Positions 3,839 through 62,369 of a stretch of DNA of 64,000 bases are shown here, one piece after another (positions within the stretch are counted from its first letter, which is position 1; every line of letters starts with the position of its first letter). A program made the translations under genes and the position numbers. The notes under the pieces were generated by a model that was not told the DNA's origin, did no database searches, and worked only from the letters and a program-made list of their open reading frames with translations. The DNA lies in assembly GCA_944338075.1 (NCBI GenBank), contig CALVLM010000011.1, positions 403 to 64,402 of the forward strand, in the 5' to 3' direction. The DNA is from Candidatus Gallimonas intestinigallinarum. GTDB taxonomy: Bacteria; Bacillota; Clostridia; Christensenellales; Borkfalkiaceae.

Positions 3839-3841
3839 ACC

Positions 3842-4357: not shown

Positions 4358-4386
4358 TTGCAAAGCCTTTGCGGATATGCTATAAT
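4358..4386 (+). promoter_or_regulatory. Sigma-70-type promoter for tRNA-Glu
   Basis: TTGCAA (4358-4363), 17-nt spacer, TATAAT (4381-4386). It lies 18 nt upstream of the tRNA 5' end. Confidence 0.5.
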
Positions 4387-4403
4387 AACAAAGCTTTTGA
4401 CGA

Positions 4404-4478
4404 GGCCTTGTGGTCAAGCGGTTAAGACGGCGCCCTCTCACGGCGCAATCCCGGGTTCGATTCCCGGCAAGGTCACCA
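4404..4478 (+). tRNA. tRNA-Glu (anticodon CUC) with encoded CCA
   Basis: The cloverleaf can be read directly. Acceptor stem is GGCCTTG/CAAGGTC (one G-U pair). Anticodon stem is GCGCC/GGCGC with loop CTCTCAC, giving CTC at 4437-4439. T arm is CCGGG-TTCGATT-CCCGG, and the 3' end is CCA. The sequence closely resembles Firmicute tRNA-Glu. Confidence 0.9.
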
Positions 4479-4483
4479 GCAAA

Positions 4484-4512
4484 ATGAGCAGACGTTGGTC
4501 TGCTCATTTTTT
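4484..4512 (+). terminator. Rho-independent terminator of tRNA-Glu
   Basis: Stem ATGAGCAGAC / GTCTGCTCAT with loop GTTG, followed by TTTTTGTT. Confidence 0.75.
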
Positions 4513-46256: not shown

Positions 46257-46328
46257 GCGCGGCAAAACTATGCCCGCCGCGGAATGCGGGCGCTGAAATT
46301 TCAGATATCTCAGAGGGAGGATATAATT

Positions 46329-47585
46329 ATGAAACTGTTGGTCATCGGTTGCGGCGGCGTTGCGCAGGTCGCCATCCAGAAGTGCGCGCAGGCGGACGAC
46401 GTGTTCACGGACATTCTCATTGCCAGCCGCACGGAGAGCAAGTGCAAGGATCTCGTTGCAAAGATCAAGGACAAGACCAAGGCAAAGCTTACTACCGCCA
46501 CGGTCAATGCCGACAACGTGGAGGCGCTCGTTTCGCTCATCGAGTCCTTCCGTCCCGTCGCCGTGCTCAACGTGGCGCTGCCCTATCAGGACCTTGCCAT
46601 CATGGAGGCATGCCTGCGTACCAAGGTGCACTATATCGACACCGCAAACTACGAGTGTGAGGACACGGACGACCCCGTCTGGCGCGCAAAGTATGAAGCG
46701 CGCGTCAAAGAGAAGGGGTTCACCGCCTACTTTGACTATTCCTATCAGTGGGACTACTTCAAAAAGTATGAGGACGCGGGCATCTGCGCGCTCCTCGGTA
46801 CGGGCTTCGATCCGGGCGTCACGCAGGTGTTCTGCGCCTATGCACAGAAGCACTACTTCGACACGATCGAGACCATCGATATTCTGGACTGCAACGGCGG
46901 CGACCACGGCTATGCGTTCGCGACCAACTTCAACCCGGAGATCAACTTGCGCGAGGTGTCGGCGAACGGCTCGTATATCGAAAACGGCAAGTGGGTGGAG
47001 ACCAAGCCTTTGGAGATCAAGCGCGAGTATGACTTCGACGAAGTGGGCGTCAAGGATATGTACCTGTTGCACCACGAGGAGCTGGAAAGCCTCGCCAAGA
47101 ACATAAAAGGCGTCAGGCGCATCCGCTTCTTCATGACCTTCGGGCAGAGCTATATCCAGCACATGAACTGCTTAAAAGACGTCGGCATGCTCTCCACGAC
47201 CCCCGTCAGCTTCGAAGGCAAGGAGATCGTCCCCATCCAGTTCTTAAAGGCACTGCTGCCCGACCCCGCAACGCTGGGCGCGCGCACCAAGGGCAAGACG
47301 AATATCGGCTGCATCTTTACGGGCGTCAAGGACGGCAAGCCCCGCTCGCTGTATATCTACAACGTCTGCGACCATCAGGAGTGCTACAAAGAGGTCGGTT
47401 CGCAGGCGATCTCCTACACGACGGGCGTGCCCGCCATGATCGGCACCATGCTCGTTGCGACGGGCGTCTGGAACAAGCCGGGCGTCTGGAACTGCGAGGA
47501 GTTTGACCCCGATCCCTACATGGACGCGCTCAATAAGTACGGGCTGCCCTGGAAGGTGGTGGAGAATCCCGTCCCGGTCGACTGA
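46329..47585 (+). CDS. Carboxynorspermidine/carboxyspermidine dehydrogenase (saccharopine dehydrogenase family)
   Basis: MKLLVIGCGGVAQV Rossmann motif. About 418 aa, adjacent to the decarboxylase partner. Confidence 0.85.
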   Translation: MKLLVIGCGGVAQVAIQKCAQADDVFTDILIASRTESKCKDLVAKIKDKTKAKLTTATVNADNVEALVSLIESFRPVAVLNVALPYQDLAIMEACLRTKVHYIDTANYECEDTDDPVWRAKYEARVKEKGFTAYFDYSYQWDYFKKYEDAGICALLGTGFDPGVTQVFCAYAQKHYFDTIETIDILDCNGGDHGYAFATNFNPEINLREVSANGSYIENGKWVETKPLEIKREYDFDEVGVKDMYLLHHEELESLAKNIKGVRRIRFFMTFGQSYIQHMNCLKDVGMLSTTPVSFEGKEIVPIQFLKALLPDPATLGARTKGKTNIGCIFTGVKDGKPRSLYIYNVCDHQECYKEVGSQAISYTTGVPAMIGTMLVATGVWNKPGVWNCEEFDPDPYMDALNKYGLPWKVVENPVPVD

Positions 47586-48697
47586 TGAAAGTTTGCGAAC
47601 TTCCCACGCCCGTCTACGTCATCGACGAGGACGCGCTCCTTCACAATCTGGAGATCTTGCGCGCGATCGAGGTGCGTACGGGCTGTAAAATTTTGCTCGC
47701 GCAGAAGGCGTTCTCCTGCTATTATTTCTATCCGCTCATCTCGGCGTATGTAAGCGGCACGACGGCGAGCGGACTGTATGAAGCCAGGCTCGCGCACGAG
47801 CACTTCAGGGGCGAAAATCATGTCTTTTGTCCTGCCTATCTGGAGGACGAGTTTGACGAGATCGCGTCCATCTGCGATCATATCGTCTTTAACTCCTTCC
47901 GCCAGCTGGAAAAGTTTGCGGGCAGGGCAAAGCATGCGAGCATCGGACTGCGCATCAATCCGCAGTTCTCCACGCAGGGCGGCGGCATCTACGACCCCTG
48001 CGCACCCTTCTCCCGCCTCGGCATCCCCAAGGAGAACTTCCGCCCCGAGCTTTTGAGCGGGGTGGAGGGCCTGCATTTCCACACGCTCTGCGAGCAGGGC
48101 GCCGAGGATCTGGCGGCGACCGTCGCGGCGTTCGAGCGCGAGTTCGGGGCGTATCTTCCAGGGATGAAGTGGCTCAATCTCGGCGGCGGGCACCATATCA
48201 CCAAGCCGGGCTACGATATTGCTCTCCTGGAGGAGACCGTCAAGCGGCTCGCAGATCGCTACGGCGTGCAGGTGTACCTGGAGCCGGGCGAGGCGATCGC
48301 TCTCAACGCGGGGTACCTGCGTACGCGCGTCCTGGAGATCGTGCACAACGGCATGGACATCGCCATTCTGGACAGTTCTGCGGAGTGCCATATGCCCGAC
48401 GTCCTGGAAATGCCATACCGCCCGCCCCTTGAAGGCGGCGGAAAGGCGGGCGAAAAGCCGTACACCTACCGCCTCTCCTCGCGTACCTGCCTTGCGGGGG
48501 ACGTCATCGGGGACTACTCCTTCGACCGTCCGCTTGCAGAGGACGACGTGCTCACCTTCGGGGACATGGCGATCTACACCATGGTCAAAAACAACACCTT
48601 CAACGGCATGCCGCTGCCCGCCATCGCGCGCATGCGCGGCGGGGAATGCGAACTCATCAAGACCTTCGGATACGCCGACTTCAAATGCAGACTATGA
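47585..48697 (+). CDS. nspC: Carboxynorspermidine/carboxyspermidine decarboxylase
   Basis: TPVYVIDEDAL..ILLAQKAF (PLP lysine). Alanine-racemase-fold decarboxylase pattern, 370 aa. Confidence 0.85.
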   Translation: MKVCELPTPVYVIDEDALLHNLEILRAIEVRTGCKILLAQKAFSCYYFYPLISAYVSGTTASGLYEARLAHEHFRGENHVFCPAYLEDEFDEIASICDHIVFNSFRQLEKFAGRAKHASIGLRINPQFSTQGGGIYDPCAPFSRLGIPKENFRPELLSGVEGLHFHTLCEQGAEDLAATVAAFEREFGAYLPGMKWLNLGGGHHITKPGYDIALLEETVKRLADRYGVQVYLEPGEAIALNAGYLRTRVLEIVHNGMDIAILDSSAECHMPDVLEMPYRPPLEGGGKAGEKPYTYRLSSRTCLAGDVIGDYSFDRPLAEDDVLTFGDMAIYTMVKNNTFNGMPLPAIARMRGGECELIKTFGYADFKCRL

Positions 48698-49782
48698 CGA
48701 CCCCCAAACGCGACAACTTTTATATGCCCGCCGAGTACGCGCCGCACGCCGCGACCATCATGATCTGGTGCGAGCGCGGCGGCAGCTGGATCTACGGCGC
48801 AAAGTACGCGCGGCCCGTCTTTGCGGAGATGATCAAAGCCATCAGCCGCAGGGAGAAGGTATACCTCGCCGTGTCCGAGCGGGGAAAGATGAGCGCGCTG
48901 GAATATTTGCAGACTGAGGTCAACGAGGGGCGCGTTGAGCTTGTCGGAATCCCGACGGACGACAGCTGGGCGCGCGACATGGCGCCCACGTTCGTCACCG
49001 ACGGCAGGGAAGTGCGCGCCGTGGACTGGGCGTTCAACGCCTGGGGCGGCGACTACAACGGGCTCTACAAGGACTACCAAAGCGACGACGCCTTTGCAGC
49101 GCAGTTTGCAAAAAGGTACGGCTGCAAGTGCTATCCTGCGCGTCCCTTTGTTTTAGAGGGCGGCTCGGTGCACACCAACGGAAAGGGCACCGTTCTCACG
49201 ACGGAGGAGTGTCTGCTCTCGCCAGGGCGCAATCCGCAGCTGACGAAGGAAGAGATCGGGGAGAAATTGATGGAGTACCTCGGCGCGGAGCGCGTCGTTT
49301 GGCTTCCGTACGGCGTAGAAGGGGACGAGACGGACGGGCACGTCGATAATATCTGCGCGTTCGTATCGGAAAATGAAGTTGTCCTCGGCTGGACGGAGGA
49401 GGGCGAACAGGGCAGACGCTGCCGCGCCGATCTTGAGGCTTTAAAGGCGGCGGGGCTCACCGTCCACAAGCTGCCCTTTCCCAAGACGCCCGTCTGCTTT
49501 ACGCAGTTTGAAGTGGACGGCTTTTCGCCCGAAGAAGGGGAGGACATGCGCGAGGTCGGCGAGAAGCTCGCGGCGAGCTACGTCAATTTCTACGTCTGCA
49601 ATGGCGCGGTGCTCGTGCCGCAGTTCGGCGACGAAAACGACGGCGTCGCCGTGCGCATCCTGTCCGGGCTGTTCCCGGGGCGGGAAGTCGTGCCCGTGTA
49701 TGCCCGCCAGCTCATCATCGGCGGCGGCAACATCCACTGCCTGACGCAGCAGATCCCCGCGCCCTCGCAAAAGGAGAAGTGA
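48694..49782 (+). CDS. aguA: Agmatine deiminase
   Basis: FYMPAEYAPH, SWARD, and the C-terminal GGGNIHCLTQQIP catalytic Cys. ATGA overlap with nspC. Confidence 0.9.
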   Translation: MTTPKRDNFYMPAEYAPHAATIMIWCERGGSWIYGAKYARPVFAEMIKAISRREKVYLAVSERGKMSALEYLQTEVNEGRVELVGIPTDDSWARDMAPTFVTDGREVRAVDWAFNAWGGDYNGLYKDYQSDDAFAAQFAKRYGCKCYPARPFVLEGGSVHTNGKGTVLTTEECLLSPGRNPQLTKEEIGEKLMEYLGAERVVWLPYGVEGDETDGHVDNICAFVSENEVVLGWTEEGEQGRRCRADLEALKAAGLTVHKLPFPKTPVCFTQFEVDGFSPEEGEDMREVGEKLAASYVNFYVCNGAVLVPQFGDENDGVAVRILSGLFPGREVVPVYARQLIIGGGNIHCLTQQIPAPSQKEK

Positions 49783-49784
49783 GT

Positions 49785-50657
49785 ATGAGAAAGATAAAAC
49801 TTGCCTGCGTGCAGATGCGCTGCTCGACTGACCGCGGCGAAAATGTTCAGAAAGCCGCGTCCTTTGTAAGACAGGCCGCAGCGAACGGAGCAAATGTCAT
49901 TCTGCTGCCCGAGCTGTTCGAGCGCCCCTATTTTTGTCAGGAGCGTAACTACGACTACTATGCCTATGCCGAGGAGACGGGAAAGAACGCCGCCGTTTTG
50001 GCGCTGTTGCCTCTTTCTGCGGAGCTGAAGACCGTCATTCCCGTCAGTTTTTACGAAAGAGAGGGGAACGTGCTGTACAATTCCGTTGCGATGCTCGATT
50101 GCGGCAAGCTGCTCGGCGTGTACCGCAAGACGCACATTCCCGACGATCACTACTATCAGGAGAAATTCTACTTCACGCCCGGGAATACGGGATTTCGTAC
50201 CTTTCAGACGACGCATGGGTGTATCGGCGTGGGCATCTGCTGGGATCAGTGGTTCCCGGAGACGGCGCGCGCGCTCGCTATCAACGGCGCGGAGGTGCTG
50301 CTCTATCCCACGGCGATCGGCTCCGAGCCCATTCTGGAGACGGACAGCGCGGGGCACTGGCAGCGGGTCATGCAGGGGCATGCCGCCGCCAATCTGATGC
50401 CCGTTGCGGCGGCAAACCGCATCGGCGAGGAGCGCGTCGCGCCGAGCGCCGGAAACGGCGGGCAGAGCTCGTCGCTCACCTTCTACGGTTCTTCCTTTAT
50501 CGCCGACAACACGGGCGCCAAGCTCGTTGAGGCGGGAAGGAGTGAGGAACGCGTGATTGCGGCGGAGTTTGACCTCGATGAACTTGCCAAGGCGCGCCTT
50601 GCGTGGGGGCTGTTCCGCGACCGTCGCCCGGAGTGCTATAAGGATCTCACAAAATAG
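49785..50657 (+). CDS. aguB: N-carbamoylputrescine amidase (CN-hydrolase family)
   Basis: LLPELF (Glu), YRKTHIP (Lys) and GVGICWDQWFPE (Cys) form the catalytic triad context. Confidence 0.9.
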   Translation: MRKIKLACVQMRCSTDRGENVQKAASFVRQAAANGANVILLPELFERPYFCQERNYDYYAYAEETGKNAAVLALLPLSAELKTVIPVSFYEREGNVLYNSVAMLDCGKLLGVYRKTHIPDDHYYQEKFYFTPGNTGFRTFQTTHGCIGVGICWDQWFPETARALAINGAEVLLYPTAIGSEPILETDSAGHWQRVMQGHAAANLMPVAAANRIGEERVAPSAGNGGQSSSLTFYGSSFIADNTGAKLVEAGRSEERVIAAEFDLDELAKARLAWGLFRDRRPECYKDLTK

Positions 50658-50917: not shown

Positions 50918-51652
50918 ATGATGATTTTTGTTTTGATAGCATTTTCAGCCGGATTGATATGCGCCATTGTTCTGTGCTGTAAGGTGCTGTATAAACTGCA
51001 TCTCAACGTTCATGCCTTTCTGCGCGGGACGCCTGACATCGGCGTCGCGAGGTACAACCTGAAAGACGGGATTTCCGTCATGTACCGTGCGCCTGCTCCG
51101 TCCGATCGGGCATTGCGCGGATATCAAATATATACCATGCAGAAGAGAAAGGAAAAGTTTTTTGTCGCGGAGTGGGCGGACGGCGCGCGGAGTGCCGAAT
51201 ATGATCTTGTGCTGTACGACGCGTGCAACCGCGTGATCGATATCATGCGGATCGCGGAGGTGCGCGGCGGACGGGCATATACGCACAAATATACGCTCCC
51301 AGCAAAGACGGACTATCTTTCTCTCTCCGTGCGCTCCGTCAATGGCGGACGGCTTGTCTCCGGCTGCGCAATCTCCCTCAAAACGTGCGCCCATATCTTG
51401 TTTGCGGCAGTCGTTTCCGCGCTGTTTGCGTGTGTGATCGCCTGGGTTACATGTTCCATCGTGTTTCTGGCGCAGAGCGGCCTTGCGGGCATCTCGTTCG
51501 GCGGCTGGATGCATCTGCTGCCTGCTTCCGGCTTTGCTGCTTTCGGGTGCTCCGTGCTCATCTCCCTGTATCCTGTTGCCGCGGGGGCATTCCGTGCATG
51601 GGCGGAAAGGATCCGCAGATCACGCCTGAAAGGAGGCGGTCATGGGATATAG
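50918..51652 (+). CDS. Hypothetical membrane protein: N-terminal TM helix, ~120-aa soluble domain and a C-terminal TM bundle
   Basis: 244-aa ORF. Hydrophobic segments MMIFVLIAFSAGLICAIVLCC and HILFAAVVSALFACVIAWVTCSIVFL. No family recognised. Confidence 0.6.
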   Translation: MMIFVLIAFSAGLICAIVLCCKVLYKLHLNVHAFLRGTPDIGVARYNLKDGISVMYRAPAPSDRALRGYQIYTMQKRKEKFFVAEWADGARSAEYDLVLYDACNRVIDIMRIAEVRGGRAYTHKYTLPAKTDYLSLSVRSVNGGRLVSGCAISLKTCAHILFAAVVSALFACVIAWVTCSIVFLAQSGLAGISFGGWMHLLPASGFAAFGCSVLISLYPVAAGAFRAWAERIRRSRLKGGGHGI

Positions 51653-52154
51653 TGCTCCGGTCTATACATACAGCCAAAATGAGCAGAAGGACTTCCCCGT
51701 ATTTGTCAGTCAACTGCTCCTGTATAATGAAAACGGGTGCGTCCTCAGCCTGCGCGTGCGAAATGTGATCGGGGTCATCGTGACGGGGTTGCGGATCAGA
51801 CTGCGCATGTACGACGCCAAGGGCGGGCTGATCGGCGCAAAGCAAATGGAGTTTGACGGGCTTGCCTGCGTGTCAGGATCGGAATGTATCTTGCCCAATA
51901 TCATCATGGCGAAGGAATGCTGTTCGGTCGCGGCAGAAGTGGAACTTGTCCGCTCCGGGCGCTACGAATATTCGCTGTCAGAGGGGAAGGTGAAAGTTGT
52001 ATACCGCCGCGAAGGGGAAGAAGTGCGCATCGGGCGGCGTCCCTTTCATTGCAGTTTTCTGCGTTCGCCGACATATCGCAGATTTTCCGTGCTGTTTACG
52101 TTGCTCTTTGTGAGCGCGGTATCTGCGGCGGTGCTGATCCTGGCGTTCGTGTGA
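51642..52154 (+). CDS. Hypothetical protein with a C-terminal TM anchor
   Basis: 170 aa. 11-nt overlap with the preceding gene. C-terminal FSVLFTLLFVSAVSAAVLILAFV. Confidence 0.55.
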   Translation: MGYSAPVYTYSQNEQKDFPVFVSQLLLYNENGCVLSLRVRNVIGVIVTGLRIRLRMYDAKGGLIGAKQMEFDGLACVSGSECILPNIIMAKECCSVAAEVELVRSGRYEYSLSEGKVKVVYRREGEEVRIGRRPFHCSFLRSPTYRRFSVLFTLLFVSAVSAAVLILAFV

Positions 52155-52187: not shown

Positions 52188-55100
52188 ATGTTAAAACACA
52201 AAAATGAAATAGAAAAACTTACGCTGCGTCAGAAGACGGCGCTGCTGACCCAATTTGACCGTCTGTCCGACAGCGGGATCAACAGCGCGGGGATCCCGCG
52301 TGTAAAGCGTGCGGAGCTGGACGATCTTGTAAGAGAGAGCGAATACCCCGCTTATTCCTCGATTATCAATTGCTGGGACTCTGCGCTGATTGAACAGATG
52401 ACGACCGAACTTGCCCTGCGCGCAAGGGAGGCCGGTTACAATTTTCTCGTCACGCCCGATCTGAAGGCAGTGAGCAATCCGTACAAGGAGGGCTTGTCCG
52501 AGGACGCCTTTCTGAACGGCAAGGCAGGGGCTGCGATCAGCCGTGCCGTCAAAGCGGCGGGGGCGGCTTGTTGTCTGGAGGGACTGTACCTCGGGGAAGA
52601 GGACGCGGAGTTCCTGGATATGGAACAGGATCGATCCGCGGTCTGTTCCCTGTTTGAAATGCCATTTTTTTACGCCTTGGAGGATACGTCCTGCGATGCC
52701 GTGGGCTGTTCCATGGCTTCGGCGGGCTGCGGGTACGCCTTCGTGAATGCGGAGCTGTTTGATGCCGCAGTTGGAGGTCGGTATGGCAAGGATGCCTTCG
52801 TCGTTGGCAGAGATATCGCGCCCGATACCGACTTTCACGATTTTCTCAACGGAAATACCTGTATCGGCGGCGCTACGCTAGCACTGGACAGGGCGGCGGT
52901 CCGCTATACGCAGTTAAAAGAGTATATTGCCGAGGGGGGAGCTACGGACCGCGATCTGCAGGTCGCGATAGCGGACGGGAAGGCGATCTCGCAGGAGACA
53001 ATCGACAGCGCGGTCGACGGGGTCATCGCATTTGCGCACCGCGTGTCCTCGAGGCGTCCCGCGACCATCGCGTCGCCTGCTGAAAATACCGTCGCTGAGG
53101 CCGCACGCGCTTCCATCGTCTTATTGAAGAACAACGGCGTTCTGCCTATCAGGAAGGGCGCGTCCGTCGCCGTGATCGGGGATTTCCGGAACTGGAAAGA
53201 TGAGATCGCGGCATACTATCCCGTCTCCGGGACGGCTGCCGGGTATGAGACGCTTGCAGAGCGCAGCGACGACTTGCTCTTTGCGGCAGGAGAGGCGGCA
53301 AAGTCTGCCGACGTCGTGGTGGCGGTCCTGGAGCAGCGCCGCACCACAGACAGAGCTGCGCGAAGCCTGATGCTCCCGGCAAACAGACTGGCGCTGATCG
53401 ATACGCTGCGCAGCAACACGAAAAAGCTGATTGCCGTAATCGTCGGAGACGCGCCCGTCGATCTGTCTTTCGATGCGTGCTGTTCGGCTGTCCTGATGGT
53501 ACCGTCCGGCGGCGCGTCCTGCGCAAAGGCGCTCGCGGAGGTGCTCAGCGGCGCTTATAATCCGTCCGGGCGGCTTGCCCGCACCTGTTATGACGGCGGA
53601 GATGCCTTTTTTGCGCAGCTGAAAGATCAGATACGTTCAGGTACAAAGCAAGTCGGAAGCCTGTCCGGTTACAGATATCTCGCATCGGAAAAACTGCGAG
53701 TGCGCTATCCCTTCGGATACGGACTCAGCTATACCAGATTTTCCTACTCCTCGCTCAGGATCGACGGGACGAACGTCACATTTACCATCAAAAATACGGG
53801 ACGCCGCGATGGGGTCGAGACGGCGCAGGTGTATGTTGCATACGGGTGCGGAGGGGTAAAAGAACTCAAGGGCTTTGCAAAAGTTTCTCTGAAGGCGGGG
53901 GAGAGCAAGACGGTTCGCGTCTCCATCCCGCCTGTGAAGCCGCAATCGGATGAGACGGGAAGGCAGACGGAATGCCGTACCGTCTATGTCGGCTCGTCGT
54001 CTCAAAATATTAAGCTCAAGGGGACGATGGGCGGCATGGTGCATAAACTGGCGTCGGTTGCCTCCGCCTTCCCGACAGTTCTTTTGCGCTTTGTTAAGGG
54101 GGGCGCAAAGATGCCTTCTGCGTTTCGCATGTCAGCCGTCAGCGACGGAGAGAAGGGATATGAAACATATTCCCCCGGCGCCGTCATGGGCGCGATCTTT
54201 ATTATAGCTGCCATTCTTACGATGGTCATATCGGCATCCTGCTATGTGTTTCTCGGAGCGCAGTTTTTGATCTGGCAATGGGTCCTGGTCGCGGGCGCAG
54301 GGGGCTTGGTCCTCGTCGAAGTAGCTGTCTATATCGCCATGAAACTGCACCGCGAGAAGTTGCTGCATAAACTGGATGCGGAGGACGAAAAAAAGCAATT
54401 TTTATCCGATGCGAAGAGCGCGGTCACGCCTGAGGGCGCATTTGAAGATGCCTTTGAAAAGACGCAGAGCGCCGTACAGACGAGCGAGCCCGTCAGGGAG
54501 GGATTGCACTATTACGAGAAGGGGTTTACCTTTTCGCTGCTGTCCGGGCAGCTGAAAACATTTTTTTCGGAACGCGGTCTGCTGGCGGAAAACAACGTCC
54601 TGTTTGACCTGATCGGTGCATTGACTTGTTCCCGTCTCCTTCTCGTACCCGGGAAGTACACGGAACAGATGTATTCGATGTGCCGCGTGCTGGCAGAGTA
54701 CTTTGGCTGTGCCTCCTATCGCGACAATGCCGCAGGGGTCGCGCAGGCGGGCGGGTTGTTTGTCGTGCGCGATCGGAACGGCATGCGAAGTACTAATTTA
54801 AGAGCGGCCGTGGAACAGGCGTCGCGAAATACACGCGTTCCCCATGTGGCGGCGGTCGGACATATTTGTGGACAATATGCGCAGGAATTGCTGGGGACGC
54901 TTGCGTGGGGGCTGGAGCAGCACGGCGGCAATCCCGCGCACTTTGAAGCCTACGCCGACGGGCTGAGTGCCGTGCACAGCCTTCCGCCCAATTTGTGGAT
55001 CGTCGCCGCGGTCGACGGCGATATCGACTCTCTCTCGGAGACGTTGACGGAAATCGCGACCGTTTTCATTCCCGATTTTCTCAGGGGACCCGTCTCGTCC

Positions 55101-55526
55101 GAAACGTCGCTGTGCAAACCGCTCAGTTATTTTCAGTTTGAAAATATGCGGCGGTTGGTGCGAGAGCAGTTCCCGCTGGAAGAACAGTTCTGGAAGCGGG
55201 TGGACCGTCTGGAAGAGGGGATTGCGGGGATGCGTCCATACCGGGTGGGAAACAGGCTCTGGAACAAGATGGAGATATTTGCCTCTGCCTTTGCGGCGTC
55301 CGGCGGCACGGAGGCGGATGCGCTCGACGGCGCAGTCGCCTGTTGCCTGTTGGCGGGGGTCTTTACCGATCGTCAGGACAAAGAATACGCGGGGCAAGTC
55401 CTTGCAGAGCTGGAAGCGGCGCTTGGAGAGGAACAGACTACGCAGTGCAAGCGGATGATGCAGTTGCTGCAATCTTTCGGAGAACAGCCCGATCCCCAAT
55501 TCAAGGAGGCTAAATCAAGTGAGTAA
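52188..55526 (+). CDS. GH3-like domain, TM hairpin and degenerate McrB-like AAA+ domain fusion protein
   Basis: The N-terminal ~600 aa are GH3-like, including the Fn3-like LRVRYPFGYGLSYTRF..FTIKNTGRRDGVETAQVYV..ELKGFAKVSLKAGESKTVRVSI. Two TM helices lie at ~54181-54350. The C-terminal ~340 aa are collinear with the two downstream AAA+ proteins but lack Walker A and Walker B. Confidence 0.8.
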   Translation: MLKHKNEIEKLTLRQKTALLTQFDRLSDSGINSAGIPRVKRAELDDLVRESEYPAYSSIINCWDSALIEQMTTELALRAREAGYNFLVTPDLKAVSNPYKEGLSEDAFLNGKAGAAISRAVKAAGAACCLEGLYLGEEDAEFLDMEQDRSAVCSLFEMPFFYALEDTSCDAVGCSMASAGCGYAFVNAELFDAAVGGRYGKDAFVVGRDIAPDTDFHDFLNGNTCIGGATLALDRAAVRYTQLKEYIAEGGATDRDLQVAIADGKAISQETIDSAVDGVIAFAHRVSSRRPATIASPAENTVAEAARASIVLLKNNGVLPIRKGASVAVIGDFRNWKDEIAAYYPVSGTAAGYETLAERSDDLLFAAGEAAKSADVVVAVLEQRRTTDRAARSLMLPANRLALIDTLRSNTKKLIAVIVGDAPVDLSFDACCSAVLMVPSGGASCAKALAEVLSGAYNPSGRLARTCYDGGDAFFAQLKDQIRSGTKQVGSLSGYRYLASEKLRVRYPFGYGLSYTRFSYSSLRIDGTNVTFTIKNTGRRDGVETAQVYVAYGCGGVKELKGFAKVSLKAGESKTVRVSIPPVKPQSDETGRQTECRTVYVGSSSQNIKLKGTMGGMVHKLASVASAFPTVLLRFVKGGAKMPSAFRMSAVSDGEKGYETYSPGAVMGAIFIIAAILTMVISASCYVFLGAQFLIWQWVLVAGAGGLVLVEVAVYIAMKLHREKLLHKLDAEDEKKQFLSDAKSAVTPEGAFEDAFEKTQSAVQTSEPVREGLHYYEKGFTFSLLSGQLKTFFSERGLLAENNVLFDLIGALTCSRLLLVPGKYTEQMYSMCRVLAEYFGCASYRDNAAGVAQAGGLFVVRDRNGMRSTNLRAAVEQASRNTRVPHVAAVGHICGQYAQELLGTLAWGLEQHGGNPAHFEAYADGLSAVHSLPPNLWIVAAVDGDIDSLSETLTEIATVFIPDFLRGPVSSETSLCKPLSYFQFENMRRLVREQFPLEEQFWKRVDRLEEGIAGMRPYRVGNRLWNKMEIFASAFAASGGTEADALDGAVACCLLAGVFTDRQDKEYAGQVLAELEAALGEEQTTQCKRMMQLLQSFGEQPDPQFKEAKSSE

Positions 55527-56835
55527 CGTTATCAACGTATTGACTGCGGATGGCGCGTCGAGCGTGCTGGAGATCCTGACAAGTCCTTTGCTCATCATTA
55601 TTTATATTGCCGTCGTCATCCTTCTCATCCTGCTCGTGGTGATCTCCGTCATGATCAACGAACGCCGGTTTAATCAGTCGGTCAAACGCATTCTCTCGCA
55701 GGCAAAAAAGACGGAAAAGCTCGATCAGCTTGAACGGGAGGAAAAGGCGGGAAAGAACAAAAATCGTTTTGAACTGCTCAAAAAGATCGATGCGGAGGGG
55801 GTGAACAAACGCAGCGATTTTACGCAGTCGTGCACCCTCCATGAGATCTGCGATGAATTCCGCCTCTTTGCCGCAAACCGCCTGAATTTGTACTATGATA
55901 TCTCCGATATCAGGCAATTTGTCGCGGGGCTTGCTGTTTCCCGCATCCTGATCCTGCAGGGTATGTCGGGTACGGGCAAAACGTCGCTCGCGTATGCGTT
56001 CGGGGAATTTATCGATAATTCCTCTGTCGTCATTCCCGTGCAGCCGATGTGGAAGGAGCGCACCGACCTGCTCGGGTACTACAATGAGTTCACCCGCCGC
56101 TTCAACGAAACGCTGCTTTTGGAGAAGATGTATGAGGCGGGCGAGCGGGAGGACATGTATATCACGATCATGGACGAACTCAATATCGCCCGCGTGGAAT
56201 ACTATTTTGCAGAATTTTTGTCTCTGCTGGAGATCCCCAATCCTGAGGCTCGCTATCTGGAAGTGGTGTCCGATCATTGGGAGACCGACCCCGCGAAGCT
56301 AAAGAACGGGCGTATCAGGCTGCCTGAAAACATGTGGTTTGTAGGGACGGCAAACAACGACGATTCCACGTTTTCCATCTCCGACAAGGTGTACGACAGA
56401 GCGATGGTCCTCAATCTTGACCGCAAGTCGGAGCCCTTTCAGACTTCGAGCAGCAAAAAGATGCCGCTCACCGCGAAAAAGTTCGATGAACTGGCACGCA
56501 AGGCAGTAGAGGACTATTCTGTCACGCAGGAAAGTCTTGCGCGCCTCGATCAGCTGGATAAATACCTGATCGAAAAGTTCCAGATCACTTTCGGCAACAG
56601 AATCATGCGTCAGATTCTGCGCTATATTCCGATCTTTATCGCATGCGGCGGAACGGAGCCGGAAGCACTGGACGATATTCTGACAAAGAAGGTACTGCGT
56701 AAACTGGAGACGCAGAATACTGCCTACTTGCGCAGCGAATCCGAGGAACTTTGCAACTATATTGAGGGATTGTTCGGCGAGAACGCCATGCCGCGTTGCA
56801 CCGAGTATATCCGCCGTATTGCAAGGAATATTTGA
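55519..56835 (+). CDS. Membrane-anchored McrB-like AAA+ GTPase (paralog 1)
   Basis: N-terminal TM helix SPLLIIIYIAVVILLILLVVISVMI. P-loop LILQGMSGTGKTS and Walker B region ITIMDELNIARVEYYFAEFLSLLE. McrB-signature-like WFVGTANNDDSTFSISDKVYDRAMVL. A GTG start follows AAGGAGG. Confidence 0.85.
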   Translation: MSNVINVLTADGASSVLEILTSPLLIIIYIAVVILLILLVVISVMINERRFNQSVKRILSQAKKTEKLDQLEREEKAGKNKNRFELLKKIDAEGVNKRSDFTQSCTLHEICDEFRLFAANRLNLYYDISDIRQFVAGLAVSRILILQGMSGTGKTSLAYAFGEFIDNSSVVIPVQPMWKERTDLLGYYNEFTRRFNETLLLEKMYEAGEREDMYITIMDELNIARVEYYFAEFLSLLEIPNPEARYLEVVSDHWETDPAKLKNGRIRLPENMWFVGTANNDDSTFSISDKVYDRAMVLNLDRKSEPFQTSSSKKMPLTAKKFDELARKAVEDYSVTQESLARLDQLDKYLIEKFQITFGNRIMRQILRYIPIFIACGGTEPEALDDILTKKVLRKLETQNTAYLRSESEELCNYIEGLFGENAMPRCTEYIRRIARNI

Positions 56836-56845
56836 GGCGTAAAAC

Positions 56846-58663
56846 ATGACGCAGACCGATCTGTATTTTCGTGCATATCTCGACTATAAAACGGCGCTCC
56901 AAAAGGACAGGGAGACGTCCACACTTCGCGCCGCCCTTGTGCAGGCGGAGCAAGCGGAGCATATCGCCAGCGTGCGCGCAGTTTGTGAGATCGAAAACGA
57001 TTGGGTGGACGCCGTCGAGCGCGGGCTGATCTATATCGGAAGGTCGATCGATGAGGAGCGACAATTCATCCTTTCCCAGGGCGAAGTCCAGCCCATCGAG
57101 AAGATCAAGCGCGTCTCCAAGGAATCGGTGGAGCACCTTGCGCGGCACAGCAACCTGATCATGCACGAACAAAAGAGTGCAGATGATATTGTACCCGACA
57201 AACTCTATACGGTGGAAAGGTTGAGCAATTATGCCGTATACGAGAACAGGTTTTTATTCATGCTCCTGAACATGGTCAAAGATTTTGTCTCGGTGCGCTA
57301 TAACGCCATCGTCCGCCTGACCAATACATATCACGGGAAACTCTCGGTCGACAAGGCGGTCTCCCTGGGAAAGCACAGGCTGCGCTATCGGCTGGAGCTG
57401 GACGATGAGCGTGAGGATGATCCTGTCATGCGCGCGAATAATAACGTCCGCGAGACGCTGGAGCGTATGGAGATCATCTTGCGTACGGTGCACTACTATC
57501 TGAATACGCCGCTGATGACGGAGGTCGCGAAGGCGGATAAGCTCAAGCCGCCCATCACCAAGACCAATCCGCTGCGCATGGATAAAAATCTCAAGGAGAC
57601 GGTCGTCCTCTATGAGTTTCTGATGGCGTATGAGAAGGACGGCTACACGATCACGCAGGAGGAACAATTGCTCAATCCGCGAAAGGGGGATGTGGCGGAC
57701 GAACTTGTCGATCCCGCTCTGCTCGCCGCCTTTCTCACATACGAAAGCACGCTTGCCCTGAAAGACGAGCTGCTGCGCCGCTATCAGGAGGAGGAAGCGC
57801 GCAGGCGGGCGGAGGAACTGCGCGAAGTCGAGGCACAGCTATCGTCCATCCGCGACCGGATGCGGGAAACGGGCTGGACAGAGCGTTATATCGCACTGTT
57901 GGAAAAGAAAAACAGTCTGCTGGAGCGCGAGAATGAGCGCGTCGCTGCGTTGCGTTCGCGCATGGAGGAGCTGGAAGGATTAAACAATGCGCTTCATGAG
58001 CAGATCGCCGCGCATGCGGCAGAGCTGGAATGCATCGGCGAGGCACACGCCAGAGAGATTTCAGATTATCAGGCGCGCCTTGATGAGCAGCGGCAAAAGC
58101 TTGCCGAGGAAATGGCAGAGCGCGCCAATGAGCGCAGCCGTCTGGAAGAACAGAGGCGTGCGGAACTTGCGAAGCTGCGGGAGGAGACGGATGCACTGCT
58201 CGCCGAAAGAGACGGCCGCTATCTGGAAAAATCGCGCGAGGCAGAGGATTTGACGGAGCGCCTTGCACGGCTTGCAAAACAAAAAGCCCTCAACGATGCC
58301 CGTCTGAACGGGCTTCGGCAGCAATACGGACTGTTGTCTCCCATGGATGATTTTTCCTCCGAGGAAGCCTTTACGGAACTGGAAGATGAACTTGAGGCGC
58401 TGTATGAGTTGGTTCGTGGCGAATGGAAGAATGCGAAAGAGATCTTGCGGAGAAATTTCCTGCATGACCTCAAGGACATTATAAGCGGTAAAAAACGCAA
58501 AGCTGCCGCTGCGAAAAAGGCAGAAGTTTTGCCGGAGGAAGACGAGGCCGCTGCTGCACATGAGGCTCCGGAGCAGGTTGCGGCAGAGCCCGCAGAACAG
58601 GACGGCGGCGAAATTGCATTAGCGGAGGGCGAACAGCGCAATGAAGAAACAAGAAGGACCTAA
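56846..58663 (+). CDS. McrC/DUF2357-like N-terminal domain fused to a long coiled coil; no nuclease motif seen
   Basis: LSNYAVYENRFLFMLLNMV and KPPITKTNPLRMDKNLKETVVLYEFL resemble the McrC N-terminal (DUF2357) pattern, recognised from memory. Residues ~300-540 are heptad-rich and Glu/Arg/Leu-rich. The tail is acidic. Confidence 0.6.
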   Translation: MTQTDLYFRAYLDYKTALQKDRETSTLRAALVQAEQAEHIASVRAVCEIENDWVDAVERGLIYIGRSIDEERQFILSQGEVQPIEKIKRVSKESVEHLARHSNLIMHEQKSADDIVPDKLYTVERLSNYAVYENRFLFMLLNMVKDFVSVRYNAIVRLTNTYHGKLSVDKAVSLGKHRLRYRLELDDEREDDPVMRANNNVRETLERMEIILRTVHYYLNTPLMTEVAKADKLKPPITKTNPLRMDKNLKETVVLYEFLMAYEKDGYTITQEEQLLNPRKGDVADELVDPALLAAFLTYESTLALKDELLRRYQEEEARRRAEELREVEAQLSSIRDRMRETGWTERYIALLEKKNSLLERENERVAALRSRMEELEGLNNALHEQIAAHAAELECIGEAHAREISDYQARLDEQRQKLAEEMAERANERSRLEEQRRAELAKLREETDALLAERDGRYLEKSREAEDLTERLARLAKQKALNDARLNGLRQQYGLLSPMDDFSSEEAFTELEDELEALYELVRGEWKNAKEILRRNFLHDLKDIISGKKRKAAAAKKAEVLPEEDEAAAAHEAPEQVAAEPAEQDGGEIALAEGEQRNEETRRT

Positions 58664-60083
58664 AAAACACTACAAGCTGTCCATATTTTTCATCGCGCTT
58701 GTCGCCATTGCGGGCGGACTGTTGCTGACTGCCCTGATCTACTTGCAGGTTACGGGTCAGTTTGCCGCGCTCACGGAGGCGATCCGGGAAATTGTCGCGC
58801 AGAACACCATCTACGGGATCCTGATCCTATTCTGGGTCATCATCATTCCGTTGATGCTCGTCCTGATCTTTGTGCTCAATCTGTTCAGGAGGGACAGGTT
58901 CAAGAAGATCAAAAAGGGCTGGGAGGACGCGGCGCGGATCGTCGCCGAAAAGGAGGCGGCAGCCAGGAAGCGGGAAGAGGAAAAGAAAAAACAGACCATT
59001 TCCCGCTTCGGGACACTGAACAGCTACGATCACAAATCGCCCGCCCGTAAGGCGGACCAGGCGGCGCTTACGCTCACGCTCGGCGATTTTTGCGACAACT
59101 TCCGTATGTTTGCGGCGCAGAAGTTTCGATTGTACTATGATATTTCCGTCATCAGACAGTTTGTGGCGGGGCTTGCCGTCTCGCACCTGATGATCTTGCA
59201 GGGCATGTCGGGCACGGGCAAAACATCGATCGCCTATGCGTTCGGCGAGTTTCTCGGAAATTCTTCGGAGATCGTTCCCGTGCAGCCCGTCTGGAAGGAG
59301 CGCACCGATCTTCTGGGCTATTACAATGAGTTTACAAAAAAGTATAACGAAACGCCTTTCCTGCAAAAGATGTACCAGGCAAACGCAAGCGATAAGCTGT
59401 ATGTCGTCGTCCTGGATGAGCTGAACATTGCACGCGTGGAATACTACTTTGCGGAGTTTCTCTCACTGCTGGAGATCCCCGATCCCAATTCTCGCTACCT
59501 TGAAGTCGTACCTGACCGCTGGCCGACCGATCCCGCAGGTCTGCAAAACGGGAGAATCAGACTGCCCGACAACATGTGGTTTATCGGCACGGCAAACAAC
59601 GACGATTCCACCTTCGCGATCTCCGACAAGGTGTACGACAGGGCAATGGTCATCAATCTTGACAGCAAGGCAGAGCCCTTCTTGCCGGACGGCGACGAGG
59701 TGCGCTGTGTTCCCATTTCCGCCGCCGGATTCAGGAAGTTGATTGCCTCTGCGCAGGCGGGGTATGAGATCACCAACCGCAATATGCGCAGGCTCAGAGA
59801 GTTGGACGAATACCTGATCGAAAAATTTCAGATCACCTTCGGAAACCGTATCATGCGGCAGATCAAGGACTATATTTCCGTCTATGTCGGATGCGGTGGT
59901 GACGAAATGGAAGCGCTCGATGATATCATATCCAAAAAAGTGCTTCGGAAGTTGGAGATGCAGAACGCCGTATACGTCAAAAATCAGGCGGAAGCGCTGT
60001 GCAACTACCTTTGCGAGCTGTTCGGCGAAACTAAAGTTCCCAAGTGCATTGCATATGTCAGGCGCGTCGCGCGGAATGCGTAA
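58641..60083 (+). CDS. Membrane-anchored McrB-like AAA+ GTPase (paralog 2)
   Basis: Two N-terminal TM helices. MILQGMSGTGKTS, VVVLDELNIARVEYYFAEFLSLLE and WFIGTANNDDSTFAISDKVYDRAMVI. The core is highly similar to paralog 1. Confidence 0.85.
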   Translation: MKKQEGPKKHYKLSIFFIALVAIAGGLLLTALIYLQVTGQFAALTEAIREIVAQNTIYGILILFWVIIIPLMLVLIFVLNLFRRDRFKKIKKGWEDAARIVAEKEAAARKREEEKKKQTISRFGTLNSYDHKSPARKADQAALTLTLGDFCDNFRMFAAQKFRLYYDISVIRQFVAGLAVSHLMILQGMSGTGKTSIAYAFGEFLGNSSEIVPVQPVWKERTDLLGYYNEFTKKYNETPFLQKMYQANASDKLYVVVLDELNIARVEYYFAEFLSLLEIPDPNSRYLEVVPDRWPTDPAGLQNGRIRLPDNMWFIGTANNDDSTFAISDKVYDRAMVINLDSKAEPFLPDGDEVRCVPISAAGFRKLIASAQAGYEITNRNMRRLRELDEYLIEKFQITFGNRIMRQIKDYISVYVGCGGDEMEALDDIISKKVLRKLEMQNAVYVKNQAEALCNYLCELFGETKVPKCIAYVRRVARNA

Positions 60084-60092
60084 GGAGGGTAT

Positions 60093-62369
60093 ATGAACGG
60101 TAGATCCAGACTTTTATATGTTTTTGGTACGATCGTTGTCGTCCTTATTTCGGCAGTGATCATTGCCGCATGCCTGATCGGTGCCGGAAACGGTTTTGGA
60201 CTGATCAACTGGTCAGCATTGGGATCGGGCGGTACGGGCGGCGGCACGGGCGGCGGTGGTTTGCCCGGCGGCGGTGGTTTGCCCGGCGGCGGTGATACGC
60301 AGATCGAGTGCCACGAGCATGAACTGACTTACTTGGAGCAGAAAGACCCGACCTGTACGGAAGAGGGAAATATCGCGTGCTGGTACTGCGAAACATGTGA
60401 TGTGTATTTTGTGGACGCGTGCGGGCAGATTGTCCTGTCGGAGGACGAGGTGTTTCTCGACTCGCTCGGACATGATTTTTCCGAGGAATGGGAGTACACC
60501 ACCTCAGAGCACTATCATCCCTGCATTCGCTGCGATGCGCAGTCCGGCAATGAGGAGCATATTTATAACGCGAGCGATGTTTGTATCGTGTGCGGATATG
60601 AAAAGCCTGAGGAAGTTCCGCCTGAAGGCGGCGGAGGCGGAGAGTTTTCCGGACTCGATCTGAGCGGCCTGATCAGAGGACCGATGTTTTACAATGATGC
60701 CGTAATTGCATATGTCTATTCCGATACGTCCGGCGGCGAGTACCTCAAAGTCAAGAGTTTTGGCGACTATGCCGGCTTTATGTGGGATTCTGCGGAGGCG
60801 TATGACGGGAGACTTGTTGCCGATTACTCGATGAATTATCTCACGGGGGCTTGGATGGGAAATGAGCATGTGCCGTCAAAAATGACCATCCTCAACAAGA
60901 CTTCGCTCTATATTCTTCCGAGCTATCTGGCTGTCGGGGCGGGCGGATACGAGATACAGAGCAGCGACGTGCTGTATGTCGGCAAGTATACGGCGAGCTA
61001 TACGGTCCCGTATTCCACCAATGCGGACGTCAGGGGGAGTCTTTCCTCTGCCCCCGATCTCGGCGCGTACAGCGCCGCGGAGGCAGCGTACAGGCAGTAT
61101 GTTTATGAAAACTATCTCTCCGTTCCCGCGTCAACATTGGAGTTTTTGTTGCAGTATGCGGAGGAACACGGCATCTCTCCCTCCGATGAGAATTTGATTT
61201 GGGAAATTGAGGCGCTGATCCGTTCCTCTGCAACGTACAATATGCAATATGACAGAGACATGGATGCGGAGGAGGATATCGTGGTCGCGTTTCTCGATCG
61301 TTATCGAGAGGGGACGTGCTCGCATTTCGCTTCGGCTGCGACGTTGATGTATCGCGCACTTGGTATCCCGGCGCGCTATGTAACGGGGTGCGTCTGTACG
61401 ACTTCCGCCGGGCAGTACGCCGTCGTGACGGGCAATCAGGCGCATGCCTGGACGGAGATCTATCTCGATGGCTGCGGCTGGATCACGATCGATGCCACTG
61501 GGAGTGGGGGGCTTGGCGGAGGGCTGCCTGGTGGAGGACTGCCCGGCGGGGAAGAGCCCGGCGGAGAACAGCCCGGCGGGGAAGAGCCCGGCGGAGAACA
61601 GCCCGGCGGGGAAGAGCCCGGCGGGGAAGAGCCCGGCGGAGAACAGCCCGGCGGGGAAGAGCCCGGCGGAGAACAGCCCGGCGGAGAACAGCCCGGCGGA
61701 GAACAGCCCGGCGGAGAACAGCCCGGCGGAGAACAGCCCGGCGGGGAAGAGCCCGGCGGGGAAGAGCCCGGCGGGGAAGAGCCCGGCGGGGAAGAGCCCG
61801 GCGGGGAAGAGCCCGGCGGGGAACAACCCGGCGGACAACAGCCGCCTTCCATTGCTCCCACCCGTACATTACAAATCACGACCCAGGACATCGTTGCCGA
61901 ATATGACGGTACGGCGCATTTCAGCGAGGACTTCTCCGTTGTCGGGCTGGCGAGCGGGCACAGAATTCAAACATTCAACGTGACGAAATTGACGAGGGTC
62001 GGCGTCGCGACCAATGAAGTGGCGGGAATTCTCGTCTATGACAGCCTCGGAAACGATGTCACGACCATGTACAAGATGGAATATACCTATGGAACGATTA
62101 CCGTGACGCCGCGGTCGATCACGATCGAGACAGGCTCGGCATCCAAGGTATATGACGGAACGCCGTTGCAATGCGATACATATTCGGTCACGTCGGGCGC
62201 GCTTGCGGAGGGCGATCAGATCGGCGAGATTGTTTTTACCGGCACTCAGACCGAGCATGGAAGAAGTCAGAACGGCATTTCCGACCTTGTGATATACGAT
62301 CGTAACGGGACGGATGTAACCACATGCTATTCGATCGAGGTCGTCGCAGGCACATTGACGGTCTATTGA
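60093..62369 (+). CDS. Membrane-anchored surface protein: Cys/His-rich module, transglutaminase-like core, PGGE(E/Q) linker and two MBG-type repeats
   Basis: N-terminal TM helix. Transglutaminase core GTCSHFASAATLMYRALGIPARYV..AHAWTEIYLDGCGWITIDATG. 20 x PGGE[EQ] units. KVYDGTPL-type repeats. AAGGAGG Shine-Dalgarno sequence. Confidence 0.85.
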   Translation: MNGRSRLLYVFGTIVVVLISAVIIAACLIGAGNGFGLINWSALGSGGTGGGTGGGGLPGGGGLPGGGDTQIECHEHELTYLEQKDPTCTEEGNIACWYCETCDVYFVDACGQIVLSEDEVFLDSLGHDFSEEWEYTTSEHYHPCIRCDAQSGNEEHIYNASDVCIVCGYEKPEEVPPEGGGGGEFSGLDLSGLIRGPMFYNDAVIAYVYSDTSGGEYLKVKSFGDYAGFMWDSAEAYDGRLVADYSMNYLTGAWMGNEHVPSKMTILNKTSLYILPSYLAVGAGGYEIQSSDVLYVGKYTASYTVPYSTNADVRGSLSSAPDLGAYSAAEAAYRQYVYENYLSVPASTLEFLLQYAEEHGISPSDENLIWEIEALIRSSATYNMQYDRDMDAEEDIVVAFLDRYREGTCSHFASAATLMYRALGIPARYVTGCVCTTSAGQYAVVTGNQAHAWTEIYLDGCGWITIDATGSGGLGGGLPGGGLPGGEEPGGEQPGGEEPGGEQPGGEEPGGEEPGGEQPGGEEPGGEQPGGEQPGGEQPGGEQPGGEQPGGEEPGGEEPGGEEPGGEEPGGEEPGGEQPGGQQPPSIAPTRTLQITTQDIVAEYDGTAHFSEDFSVVGLASGHRIQTFNVTKLTRVGVATNEVAGILVYDSLGNDVTTMYKMEYTYGTITVTPRSITIETGSASKVYDGTPLQCDTYSVTSGALAEGDQIGEIVFTGTQTEHGRSQNGISDLVIYDRNGTDVTTCYSIEVVAGTLTVY
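60252..60294 (+). repeat. 18-nt tandem duplication (about 2.4 copies) encoding GGGLPG
   Basis: GGCGGTGGTTTGCCCGGC occurs at 60252-60269 and 60270-60287, followed by a partial third copy. Confidence 0.85.
61542..61841 (+). repeat. 15-nt tandem repeat x20 encoding PGGEE/PGGEQ
   Basis: Units of CCCGGCGGGGAAGAG or CCCGGCGGAGAACAG run in phase from 61542. Only the last two units are degenerate. Confidence 0.95.

Follow-up and report, generated by a model that had tools for sequence, protein, structure and literature searches.

Sequence evidence for an ancient, inactive McrB-like AAA+ domain fused to a degenerate GH3 protein in gut Clostridia

We analysed a 64,000-nucleotide (nt) stretch of DNA from Candidatus Gallimonas intestinigallinarum (assembly GCA_944338075.1, contig CALVLM010000011.1, positions 403 to 64,402 of the forward strand; hereafter the window). 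It carries a 3339-nt open reading frame (ORF; window positions 52188-55526, + strand) for a fusion protein of 1112 amino acids (aa). The C-terminal domain of this protein (residues 775-1096) is a diverged paralogue of two adjacent NxD-type McrB-like AAA+ proteins, called A1 and A2 here, and its residues identify it as an ancient and permanently inactive McrB-like copy. The domain keeps the AAA+ core fold together with the helical lid that is specific to the family. We believe that through it an accessory module is probably plugged into a relative of the McrBC restriction motor that is tethered to the membrane and has no nuclease. An earlier reading of the bare letters (the original prediction), which concerned the 3′ end of the gene (54500-55526), had proposed that a protein resembling glycoside hydrolase family 3 (GH3) carries, as a fusion, a third McrB-like AAA+ copy that is catalytically dead. 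Profile comparison, AlphaFold2 (AF2) modelling, Foldseek matches and the loss of catalytic signatures all bear this proposal out.

Homology and fold of the C-terminal domain

A BLASTP comparison of residues 747-1112 with A1 returned 162 aa at 25% identity (E 1e-12). This alignment opens at LPPNLW/LPENMW and includes GNRLW/GNRIM and GGTEADALD/GGTEPEALD; the corresponding comparison with A2 gave an E of 8e-8. The proposed collinearity with both downstream AAA+ proteins was therefore recovered, as were all three of the alignments that had been quoted in its favour. The N-terminal half of the domain, in which the P-loop region lies, was not detected by BLASTP against either A1 or A2, and we therefore built profiles. 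When a 121-sequence profile of the domain was aligned by hhalign with a 120-sequence AAA+ profile, the probability was 99.9 and the E 6e-35, with 321 collinear columns that pair positions 3-324 of the domain with residues 100-436 of A1. In this register LLLVPGKYTEQMYS lies under LILQGMSGTGKTSL, and HVAAVGH lies under ITIMDEL; an unsupervised, plain MAFFT alignment reproduces it. The homologous stretch is residues 775-1096 (54510-55475) and the last ~16 residues of the protein form an unconserved tail, which corrects the ~340 C-terminal residues proposed originally.

The domain is equidistant from A1 (hhalign 1.2e-35) and A2 (4.9e-37), and we therefore consider its inactivation to be old. Across 78 loci, a hidden Markov model (HMM) of the dead domain scores every active paralogue at 112-159 bits, and most dead domains in turn reach 23-83 bits with the AAA+ HMM. 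Pairwise identity between the dead domain and the paralogues is low, at 17-25%.

When the dead domain was searched exhaustively with phmmer against 1.84 billion representatives of 50% identity clusters, 396 of them matched at E<1e-3. Among the 150 matches listed, most are proteins of ~1100 aa in which the matching region is C-terminal. Divergent orthologues, which are 25-37% identical to each other, keep the domain with constant boundaries and near-invariant residues. A word-indexed homologue search found nothing with the C-terminal domain alone as query; the full-length query found a 99%-identical relative (P0271) and ~19 orthologues of the fusion protein.

Single-sequence AlphaFold modelling of the domain was unusable, with a predicted local distance difference test score (pLDDT) of 37. 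With a 57-row alignment of orthologues and paralogues, AF2 gave a model with pLDDT 85 and a predicted template-modelling score (pTM) of 0.88. This model has a beta-alpha-beta core, a beta-hairpin insert, a disordered loop before beta4 and a six-helix lid. Its top Foldseek matches in the PDB are all AAA+ proteins of the helix-2-insert clade, namely MCM, McrB (6hz4 and 6ut6), NorQ, CbbQ, RavA and dynein, with E from 7e-6 to 1e-3. Pairwise profile alignment and structure prediction, the two checks proposed originally, gave a similarity far beyond chance and an AAA+ fold, rather than a vanishing similarity or an unrelated fold. With its AAA+ core, its lid and its McrB-family homology, the domain belongs to the McrB family by descent.

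All four catalytic signatures are lost

We examined the catalytic positions in two sets of orthologues, of 121 and 42 sequences. In the fusion protein the GxxGxGK[ST] motif is replaced by PGKYTEQM (residues 821-828; 54648-54671), which aligns under the GMSGTGKT of the active proteins and places Q827 in the column of the Walker A lysine. Over the 121 orthologues this column is occupied by L/D/Q/E/T/A/S, and K is not among its seven commonest residues; the column after it, which is Thr/Ser in active proteins, is F/L in the dead family. A canonical P-loop was found in 0/121 and 0/42 orthologues. We also considered whether the P-loop region retains a shifted GK[ST] as a vestige, and rejected this; such a motif occurs in only 2/121 orthologues and is unconserved. 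The Walker B equivalent is VAAVGH (residues 887-892; 54846-54863), in which DE has become G891-H892, and the two family columns are variable (T/D/R/N and G/N/D/H). On both replacements, which had been read correctly from the letters, hhalign and MAFFT agree.

Two further signatures, beyond those noticed originally, are also missing. The beta4 strand LPPNLWIV (residues 932-939) leads into the position of the NxD/sensor-1 motif (strand and lost motif together at 54981-55019), and here hhalign and MAFFT set the invariant NNDD of A1 and A2 against D943-G944 and a 2-residue deletion, with no conserved Asn. The position of the invariant trans-acting arginine, R294 of A1, is occupied by E955 (55050-55052). 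The invariant D293-R294 of A1 aligns with R347-R348 of E. coli McrB, which lie on the helix that in TgMcrB provides R425/R426, the trans-acting sensor II/arginine-finger pair (PMC7680126). Among the 121 orthologues this column holds E in 64, D in 23, N in 12, R in 5 and K in 5, and is thus acidic (E/D) in 87/121. Walker A, Walker B, NxD/sensor-1 and the trans-acting arginine are all lost across the family, and we therefore regard the domain as an old, selectively maintained pseudo-NTPase.

What is conserved lies elsewhere in the domain. The beta4 strand has the pattern P-x-N-x-W-F in dead and active families alike, with N935 present in 119/121 orthologues (98%) and W937 in 110/121 (91%). The helical lid (55128-55475), delimited by BLASTP and by co-conserved columns, carries the motifs WKRVDRLE, GNR, (C)GG, ALD, FGE and C. 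Its residues common to dead and active families are GN 1021-1022, CG 1038-1039, ALD 1045-1047, FG 1079-1080 and C1087, and these lid motifs also occur in a coiled-coil McrB homologue from Deinococcus. We conclude that this pattern of conservation is that of a pseudoenzyme that has retained its fold and partner surfaces.

The remainder of the fusion protein and its membrane topology

Pfam assigns only two domains to the 1112-aa protein: the GH3 C-terminal domain PF01915 (residues 310-515, E 7.7e-28) and the Fn3-like PF14310 (residues 544-582, E 1.6e-8), which together span 53115-53933. Residues 2-288 (52191-53051) are homologous to the GH3 catalytic domain when compared by hhalign with true GH3 enzymes (probability 100, E 6.7e-40). 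PF00933, which is present in every true GH3 match, was detected neither in the fusion protein nor in any of its orthologues. When 41 family members were aligned with 23 true GH3 enzymes, the motifs DGPxGxR, KHF, YNxxNG and SDW, the last of which holds the nucleophile, were unconserved, and the EsEGxDR segment that provides the acid/base of the true enzymes was found to be deleted. The N-terminal GH3 domain has thus lost, family-wide, both its nucleophile Asp and the D/R/KH residues that bind substrate, and we conclude from these positions that the GH3 part is a pseudoenzyme. The 'sensor domain' proposed originally is therefore itself a pseudo-GH3. Sensing by the pseudo-GH3, if there is any, would be ligand binding, not catalysis.

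The fusion protein has no N-terminal signal peptide in its sequence. Two hydrophobic segments at residues ~662-718 (54171-54341) form a transmembrane (TM) hairpin in a Kyte-Doolittle scan, and in the orthologue alignment the number of TM segments is likewise even. The dead AAA+ module and the pseudo-GH3 are therefore both cytoplasmic, and the fusion as a whole is a double pseudoenzyme. A charged linker of ~54 residues (54342-54503, + strand) follows the hairpin and leads to the AAA+ domain. In hydrophobicity scans A1 has one N-terminal TM segment, within residues 12-51, and A2 has two (hydrophobic residues 10-39 and 50-85); in each a charged linker of ~50 residues comes next. With similar TM anchors and linkers, the three AAA-type modules thus hang similarly far beneath the membrane.

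The active paralogues and an McrC-like partner

The fusion gene lies in a run of genes that are all on the + strand. The four genes 3′ of it either overlap or lie ~10 nt apart; the overlap is 8 nt between the fusion gene and A1 and 23 nt between C605 and A2. A1 (55519-56835) encodes a 438-aa McrB-like GTPase of the NxD type with an N-terminal TM helix, and its Walker A, Walker B DE and NNDD motifs are at 55960-55983, 56173-56178 and 56353-56364. A2 (58641-60083) encodes a second such GTPase, of 480 aa, also with N-terminal TM segments. Both match Pfam AAA_5, NCBIfam McrB and E. coli McrB in the PDB (E 5e-5), as well as the PADLOC candidate family PDC-M26A (A1, 1.4e-47; A2, 5e-53); within the operon PADLOC matches the AAA+ proteins alone. 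GMSGTGKT, DE, NNDD and DR are invariant in 10 aligned A1/A2 homologues, and with both Walker motifs (A and B) intact as well as an N-x-D followed by D/E, both proteins have what defines the NxD branch. Pfam found no N-terminal DNA-binding specificity domain on A1 or A2, the N-termini of which consist of TM segments and the charged linker. As a separate observation, an unannotated phage record (MT835511.1:39956-41107, 'Bacteriophage sp.', human faeces) contains a relative of the A1 AAA+ domain that is 35% identical and covers 71% of A1.

Between A1 and A2 lies the gene for C605 (56846-58663), a 605-aa protein with a DUF2357 region that resembles the N-terminal domain of McrC, a long stretch of coiled coil and, at its C-terminus, a short motif that is conserved. 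DUF2357 is recognized by Pfam above cut-off (E 1.4e-5), and was found in 9/14 C605 orthologues. The variable coiled coil covers residues ~300-550 and accounts for the coiled-coil matches in the PDB and Pfam. Searched against the PDB as a profile, the C605 family matched coiled-coil proteins only and no McrC, and the McrC-N assignment therefore rests on the Pfam DUF2357 match. DUF2357 is the N-terminal domain of McrC that is inserted into the ring of McrB. Family alignment, Pfam and the PDB profile search revealed no nuclease fold in C605. Likewise, no Pfam match to a nuclease occurs in the scanned genes of the operon, from the first gene (S244) through the partial downstream ORF, or in seven annotated loci (L001-L007).

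Two small genes precede the fusion gene, neither product of which belongs to any family in a Pfam scan. The operon's first gene, S244 (50918-51652), encodes a small polytopic membrane protein with hydrophobic residues 1-31 and 150-225, and an orthologue stands in the matching position at ~50 loci. S170 (51642-52154) encodes a small protein with a C-terminal TM anchor at residues 147-170, and its position is also conserved across loci. On the 3′ side, A2 is followed by a gene (60093-62369) for a 758-aa membrane-anchored protein that has a transglutaminase core (Pfam PF01841, 4e-21), a YDG domain (2e-3), a TM segment within residues 4-40 and a PGGE-repeat linker. The (E/Q)PGGE linker is encoded by a 15-nt tandem repeat at 61514-61834 (~20 copies, 93% matches), and a shorter GGxGG-coding repeat lies in the same gene at 60228-60294. 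The last gene (62382-64000) is partial, as it leaves the window. It encodes an adhesin-like, TM-anchored surface protein with a TM segment within residues 13-53, repeated 'YDGTPL'-type (YDG/MBG) modules and an AgI/II C2-like region (AgI_II_C2, Pfam 3.3e-8).

Conservation and variants of the operon

We scanned species-representative genomes with the AAA+ alignment as query, which matched at least 537 places, and fetched 78 loci. The order S244, S170, pseudo-GH3/dead-AAA, A1, C605 and A2, followed by large surface proteins, is conserved in contigs of A1 homologues and in ~50/78 of the loci fetched. The carriers are all gut or rumen Clostridia, mostly metagenome-assembled genomes, from the Christensenellaceae, Ca. 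Gallimonas, Ca. Scatosoma, the Pumilibacteraceae and the Oscillospiraceae; one of them, Anaerocaecibacter muris CLA-AA-M11 (L080), is cultured. We conclude that gut and rumen Clostridia carry the operon stably on the chromosome, in at least several hundred genomes at species level.

The fusion gene strictly co-occurs with the motor genes. A variant operon at five loci (L024, L034, L041, L057 and L066; for example L057:9157-17865) keeps a polytopic membrane protein distantly related to S244, A1, a shorter C605, A2 and YDG-repeat surface proteins, and is without S170 and without the pseudo-GH3/dead-AAA gene. We therefore consider the fusion to be an accessory module that was added to a self-sufficient core. 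Elsewhere S170 forms the C-terminal end of BspA-type leucine-rich repeat (LRR) proteins of 1659-2032 aa (Pfam LRR_5, E down to 1e-210), as at L080:677-6772, L026:1117-6618 and L036:2247-7223. Taken with the downstream surface proteins, these LRR fusions indicate that the system sits among adhesin-type proteins, not among nucleic-acid enzymes.

The operon is flanked by housekeeping genes, and by different ones from genome to genome: polyamine biosynthesis genes here and S-adenosylmethionine synthetase, tyrosyl-tRNA synthetase, Era/RecO or SleB/YpeB genes elsewhere. No plasmid or phage record contained a homologue that exceeds 42% identity or spans the entire protein. We considered and rejected a reading of the operon as part of a defence island or mobile element, given that it has no nuclease, genome-specific housekeeping flanks and no close plasmid or phage homologues.

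The polyamine cluster itself (46284-50657) lies just 5′ of the operon. It comprises genes that overlap one another, for a saccharopine-dehydrogenase-family protein (PF03435/PF16653), which we read as carboxynorspermidine dehydrogenase, a pyridoxal phosphate-dependent decarboxylase, an agmatine deiminase (PAD_porph) and a CN-hydrolase of the N-carbamoylputrescine amidase type. At the far end of the window, positions 1-4500 have a low GC content (0.42-0.43, against ~0.58 elsewhere). This stretch contains a large serine recombinase gene (1003-2823; Resolvase and Recombinase domains), has tRNA-Glu(CTC) near its end (4404-4478), and is probably the edge of an integrated mobile element.

A proposed role for the dead domain

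We favour, with some reserve, a reading in which the dead domain is a McrB-like pseudo-NTPase, fused through the TM hairpin to a dead cytoplasmic GH3 protein, that co-assembles with A1 and A2 as an accessory subunit. It would then act as a non-catalytic protomer or adaptor, the retained AAA+ and lid surfaces of which allow co-assembly with the A1/A2 ring beneath the membrane, either by taking a position in the ring or by docking on it. In this way it may couple the pseudo-GH3 scaffold, a possible ligand binder, and the co-occurring S170 to the McrBC-derived motor, which would act on a process of the envelope or of surface proteins rather than on DNA. Circumstantial evidence for co-assembly comes from the gene overlaps, the matching membrane tethers and ~50-residue linkers, shared conservation that is confined to the lid helices and beta4, and a fusion gene that strictly accompanies the motor genes.

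Several considerations weigh against this reading. The acidic residue at the arginine position would disable the active site next to it, and could thus speak for a cap or regulator instead of an ordinary protomer. In the variant operons the motor core occurs without the fusion, which is therefore not required for ring formation. The alignment given to AF2 held the active paralogues, which favours an AAA+ fold, although the homology stands independently of the model. Lastly, none of the components has been studied experimentally in the literature that we searched.

Some of these observations suit an arrangement in which the dead domain stays outside the ring, as a lateral adaptor that binds C605 or the outer or lid face of A1/A2 through its conserved lid motifs and does no more than localise the pseudo-GH3 near the motor. 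Such an arrangement would explain why shared conservation centres on the lid helices and beta4 and not on the nucleotide-pocket and interface residues, and it sits well with the acidic trans-arginine position and with a motor core found without the fusion. We nevertheless think it rather unlikely, as the domain has retained a complete and confidently modelled AAA+ alpha-beta core, exceeding what a lid-only adaptor needs, and its tether and linker length match those of A1 and A2. That catalytic elements are lost in cis as well as in trans, with 87/121 orthologues having E/D at the arginine position, and that the domain is fused to a fold of the ligand-binding type, would also be expected of a negative regulator, in which a P-loop- and arginine-less mimic caps or poisons A1/A2 and keeps the GTPase switched off as long as the pseudo-GH3 has no ligand bound. 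A gene that is co-transcribed and probably translationally coupled with its targets is, however, better suited to a stoichiometric structural subunit, the GH3 pocket residues are unconserved and there is no evidence of a ligand, and such a decoy seems to us quite improbable. That the similarity is a chance or compositional match, or the decaying and functionless remnant of a duplicated AAA+ gene, could be argued from the 17-25% pairwise identity. It is scarcely credible in view of the profile-profile E of 6e-35, the confident fold prediction, and boundaries and near-invariant residues that are kept in hundreds of divergent orthologues.

If the dead domain does co-assemble as a ring subunit, the acidic residue at the trans-arginine position means that it would silence two interfaces, its own pocket and that of its neighbour. 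The McrB hexamer of McrBC has one protomer with a loose, non-catalytic interface on either side (PMC7680126). By analogy, the domain might be a dedicated 'asymmetry subunit' that hard-wires the loose McrBC-type protomer position into a membrane-tethered hetero-hexamer of A1, A2 and the dead copy. An McrC-N-like finger of C605 would thread this ring, and the resulting nuclease-free envelope machine would assemble, anchor or tension giant adhesin-like surface proteins, with the double pseudoenzyme serving as stator and input module. Taken in all its detail, we regard this scheme as unlikely.

To our knowledge, McrB-type GTPases are known almost only as DNA-restriction motors. The operon described here contains an McrBC-derived module without a nuclease, in three membrane-tethered paralogous copies, one of which is permanently inactive and has a second pseudoenzyme fused to it. 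Should the dead copy be a subunit of the ring, this would be the first hetero-oligomeric McrB ring that we know of, and a natural experiment on how built-in asymmetry controls an McrB motor. More widely, the operon would offer a tractable case in which a defence motor has been exapted to serve the cell envelope, and would give substance to 'CoCoPALM'-like systems, which so far have only been named.

Comparison with known systems

McrB of the McrBC type IV restriction systems (E. coli and T. gammatolerans; PDB 6hz4, 6ut6) is of the same AAA+ clade and fold. A1 and A2 match it by sequence, the model of the dead domain matches it by structure, and C605 carries DUF2357. The operon differs from McrBC in that the dead domain is without Walker A, Walker B, signature motif and trans arginines, in that TM segments take the place of the DNA-binding N-terminal domain, and in that the McrC-like partner is without a nuclease. 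It also differs in being chromosomal, in a housekeeping context, and was not found on plasmids or phages at >42% identity. The plasmid homologues of A1, which are 32-39% identical to it, form McrBC pairs of the typical kind: Deinococcus has an AAA protein of 800 aa, fused to a coiled coil, ahead of a DUF2357 protein, and in Lactococcus an AAA protein and a nuclease-domain protein form a pair flanked by insertion sequences.

The NxD branch of McrB GTPases, defined by an N-x-D that is followed by D/E, includes the nuclease-associated CoCoNuT systems (Bell et al., 2024, eLife; PMC11090510). A1 and A2 have N-x-D followed by D, and the same register is occupied by N-x-D-E in the coiled-coil-fused Deinococcus and the Lactococcus homologues that are paired with DUF2357 or nuclease genes (NNDD in A1/A2 versus G-T-x-N-H-D-E in Deinococcus and N-T-D-E in Lactococcus); the lid motifs GNR, GG and A-x-D are common to them. 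The operon is not a CoCoNuT, as it has neither a HEPN nor any other nuclease. The same paper names, without describing it, a CoCoPALM type in which an FtsB-like TM/coiled-coil segment is fused to the GTPase and is accompanied by a coiled-coil McrC homologue and signal-peptidase-type pilus-assembly genes (PMC11090510). The likeness is evident in C605, a coiled-coil McrC homologue without a nuclease, and in neighbours that are surface or adhesin-type genes; the N-terminal TM and charged helical segments of A1 and A2 may be a further point of likeness. The likeness is incomplete, in that no signal-peptidase-family gene was found, either among the operon genes of the window or in seven loci that had Pfam annotation (L001-L007). 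The neighbours are instead transglutaminase, YDG, AgI/II and BspA-LRR proteins. The only FtsB-type similarity of the A1/A2 N-termini is to FtsL and is not significant (E 0.067), with no DivIC/FtsB Pfam match. A dead McrB paralogue, tandem McrB paralogues and a GH3 fusion go unmentioned in Bell et al. (2024; PMC11090510) and in its supplements, and in the literature that we searched there was no follow-up paper on CoCoPALM and nothing relevant on PDC-M26, on McrB with GH3 or on McrB with transglutaminase. We therefore class A1 and A2 as NxD-branch McrB GTPases of a CoCoPALM-like system; the dead domain is a member of the McrB family by descent only.

The pseudo-GH3 half is comparable to the BglX-type GH3 beta-glucosidases and xylosidases, with which it shares a homologous N-terminal domain and the GH3_C and Fn3-like domains. 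It differs from them in the loss of the nucleophile Asp and the substrate-binding motifs, in the deleted acid/base segment and in the undetected PF00933; moreover, BglX-type enzymes are secreted or periplasmic, whereas the fusion protein is cytoplasmic and membrane-anchored.

Non-catalytic subunits and modules of AAA+ fold include delta and delta′ of the bacterial clamp loader and the degenerate AAA5 and AAA6 modules of dynein; we know of no reported case of a dead subunit in the McrB family. Like the domain described here, these have a paralogous AAA+ fold without nucleotide motifs, are conserved, and are encoded with their active paralogues. The dead module of the fusion protein differs from them in that its membership of a ring is a proposal, and in that it is joined to a membrane anchor and to a second pseudoenzyme.

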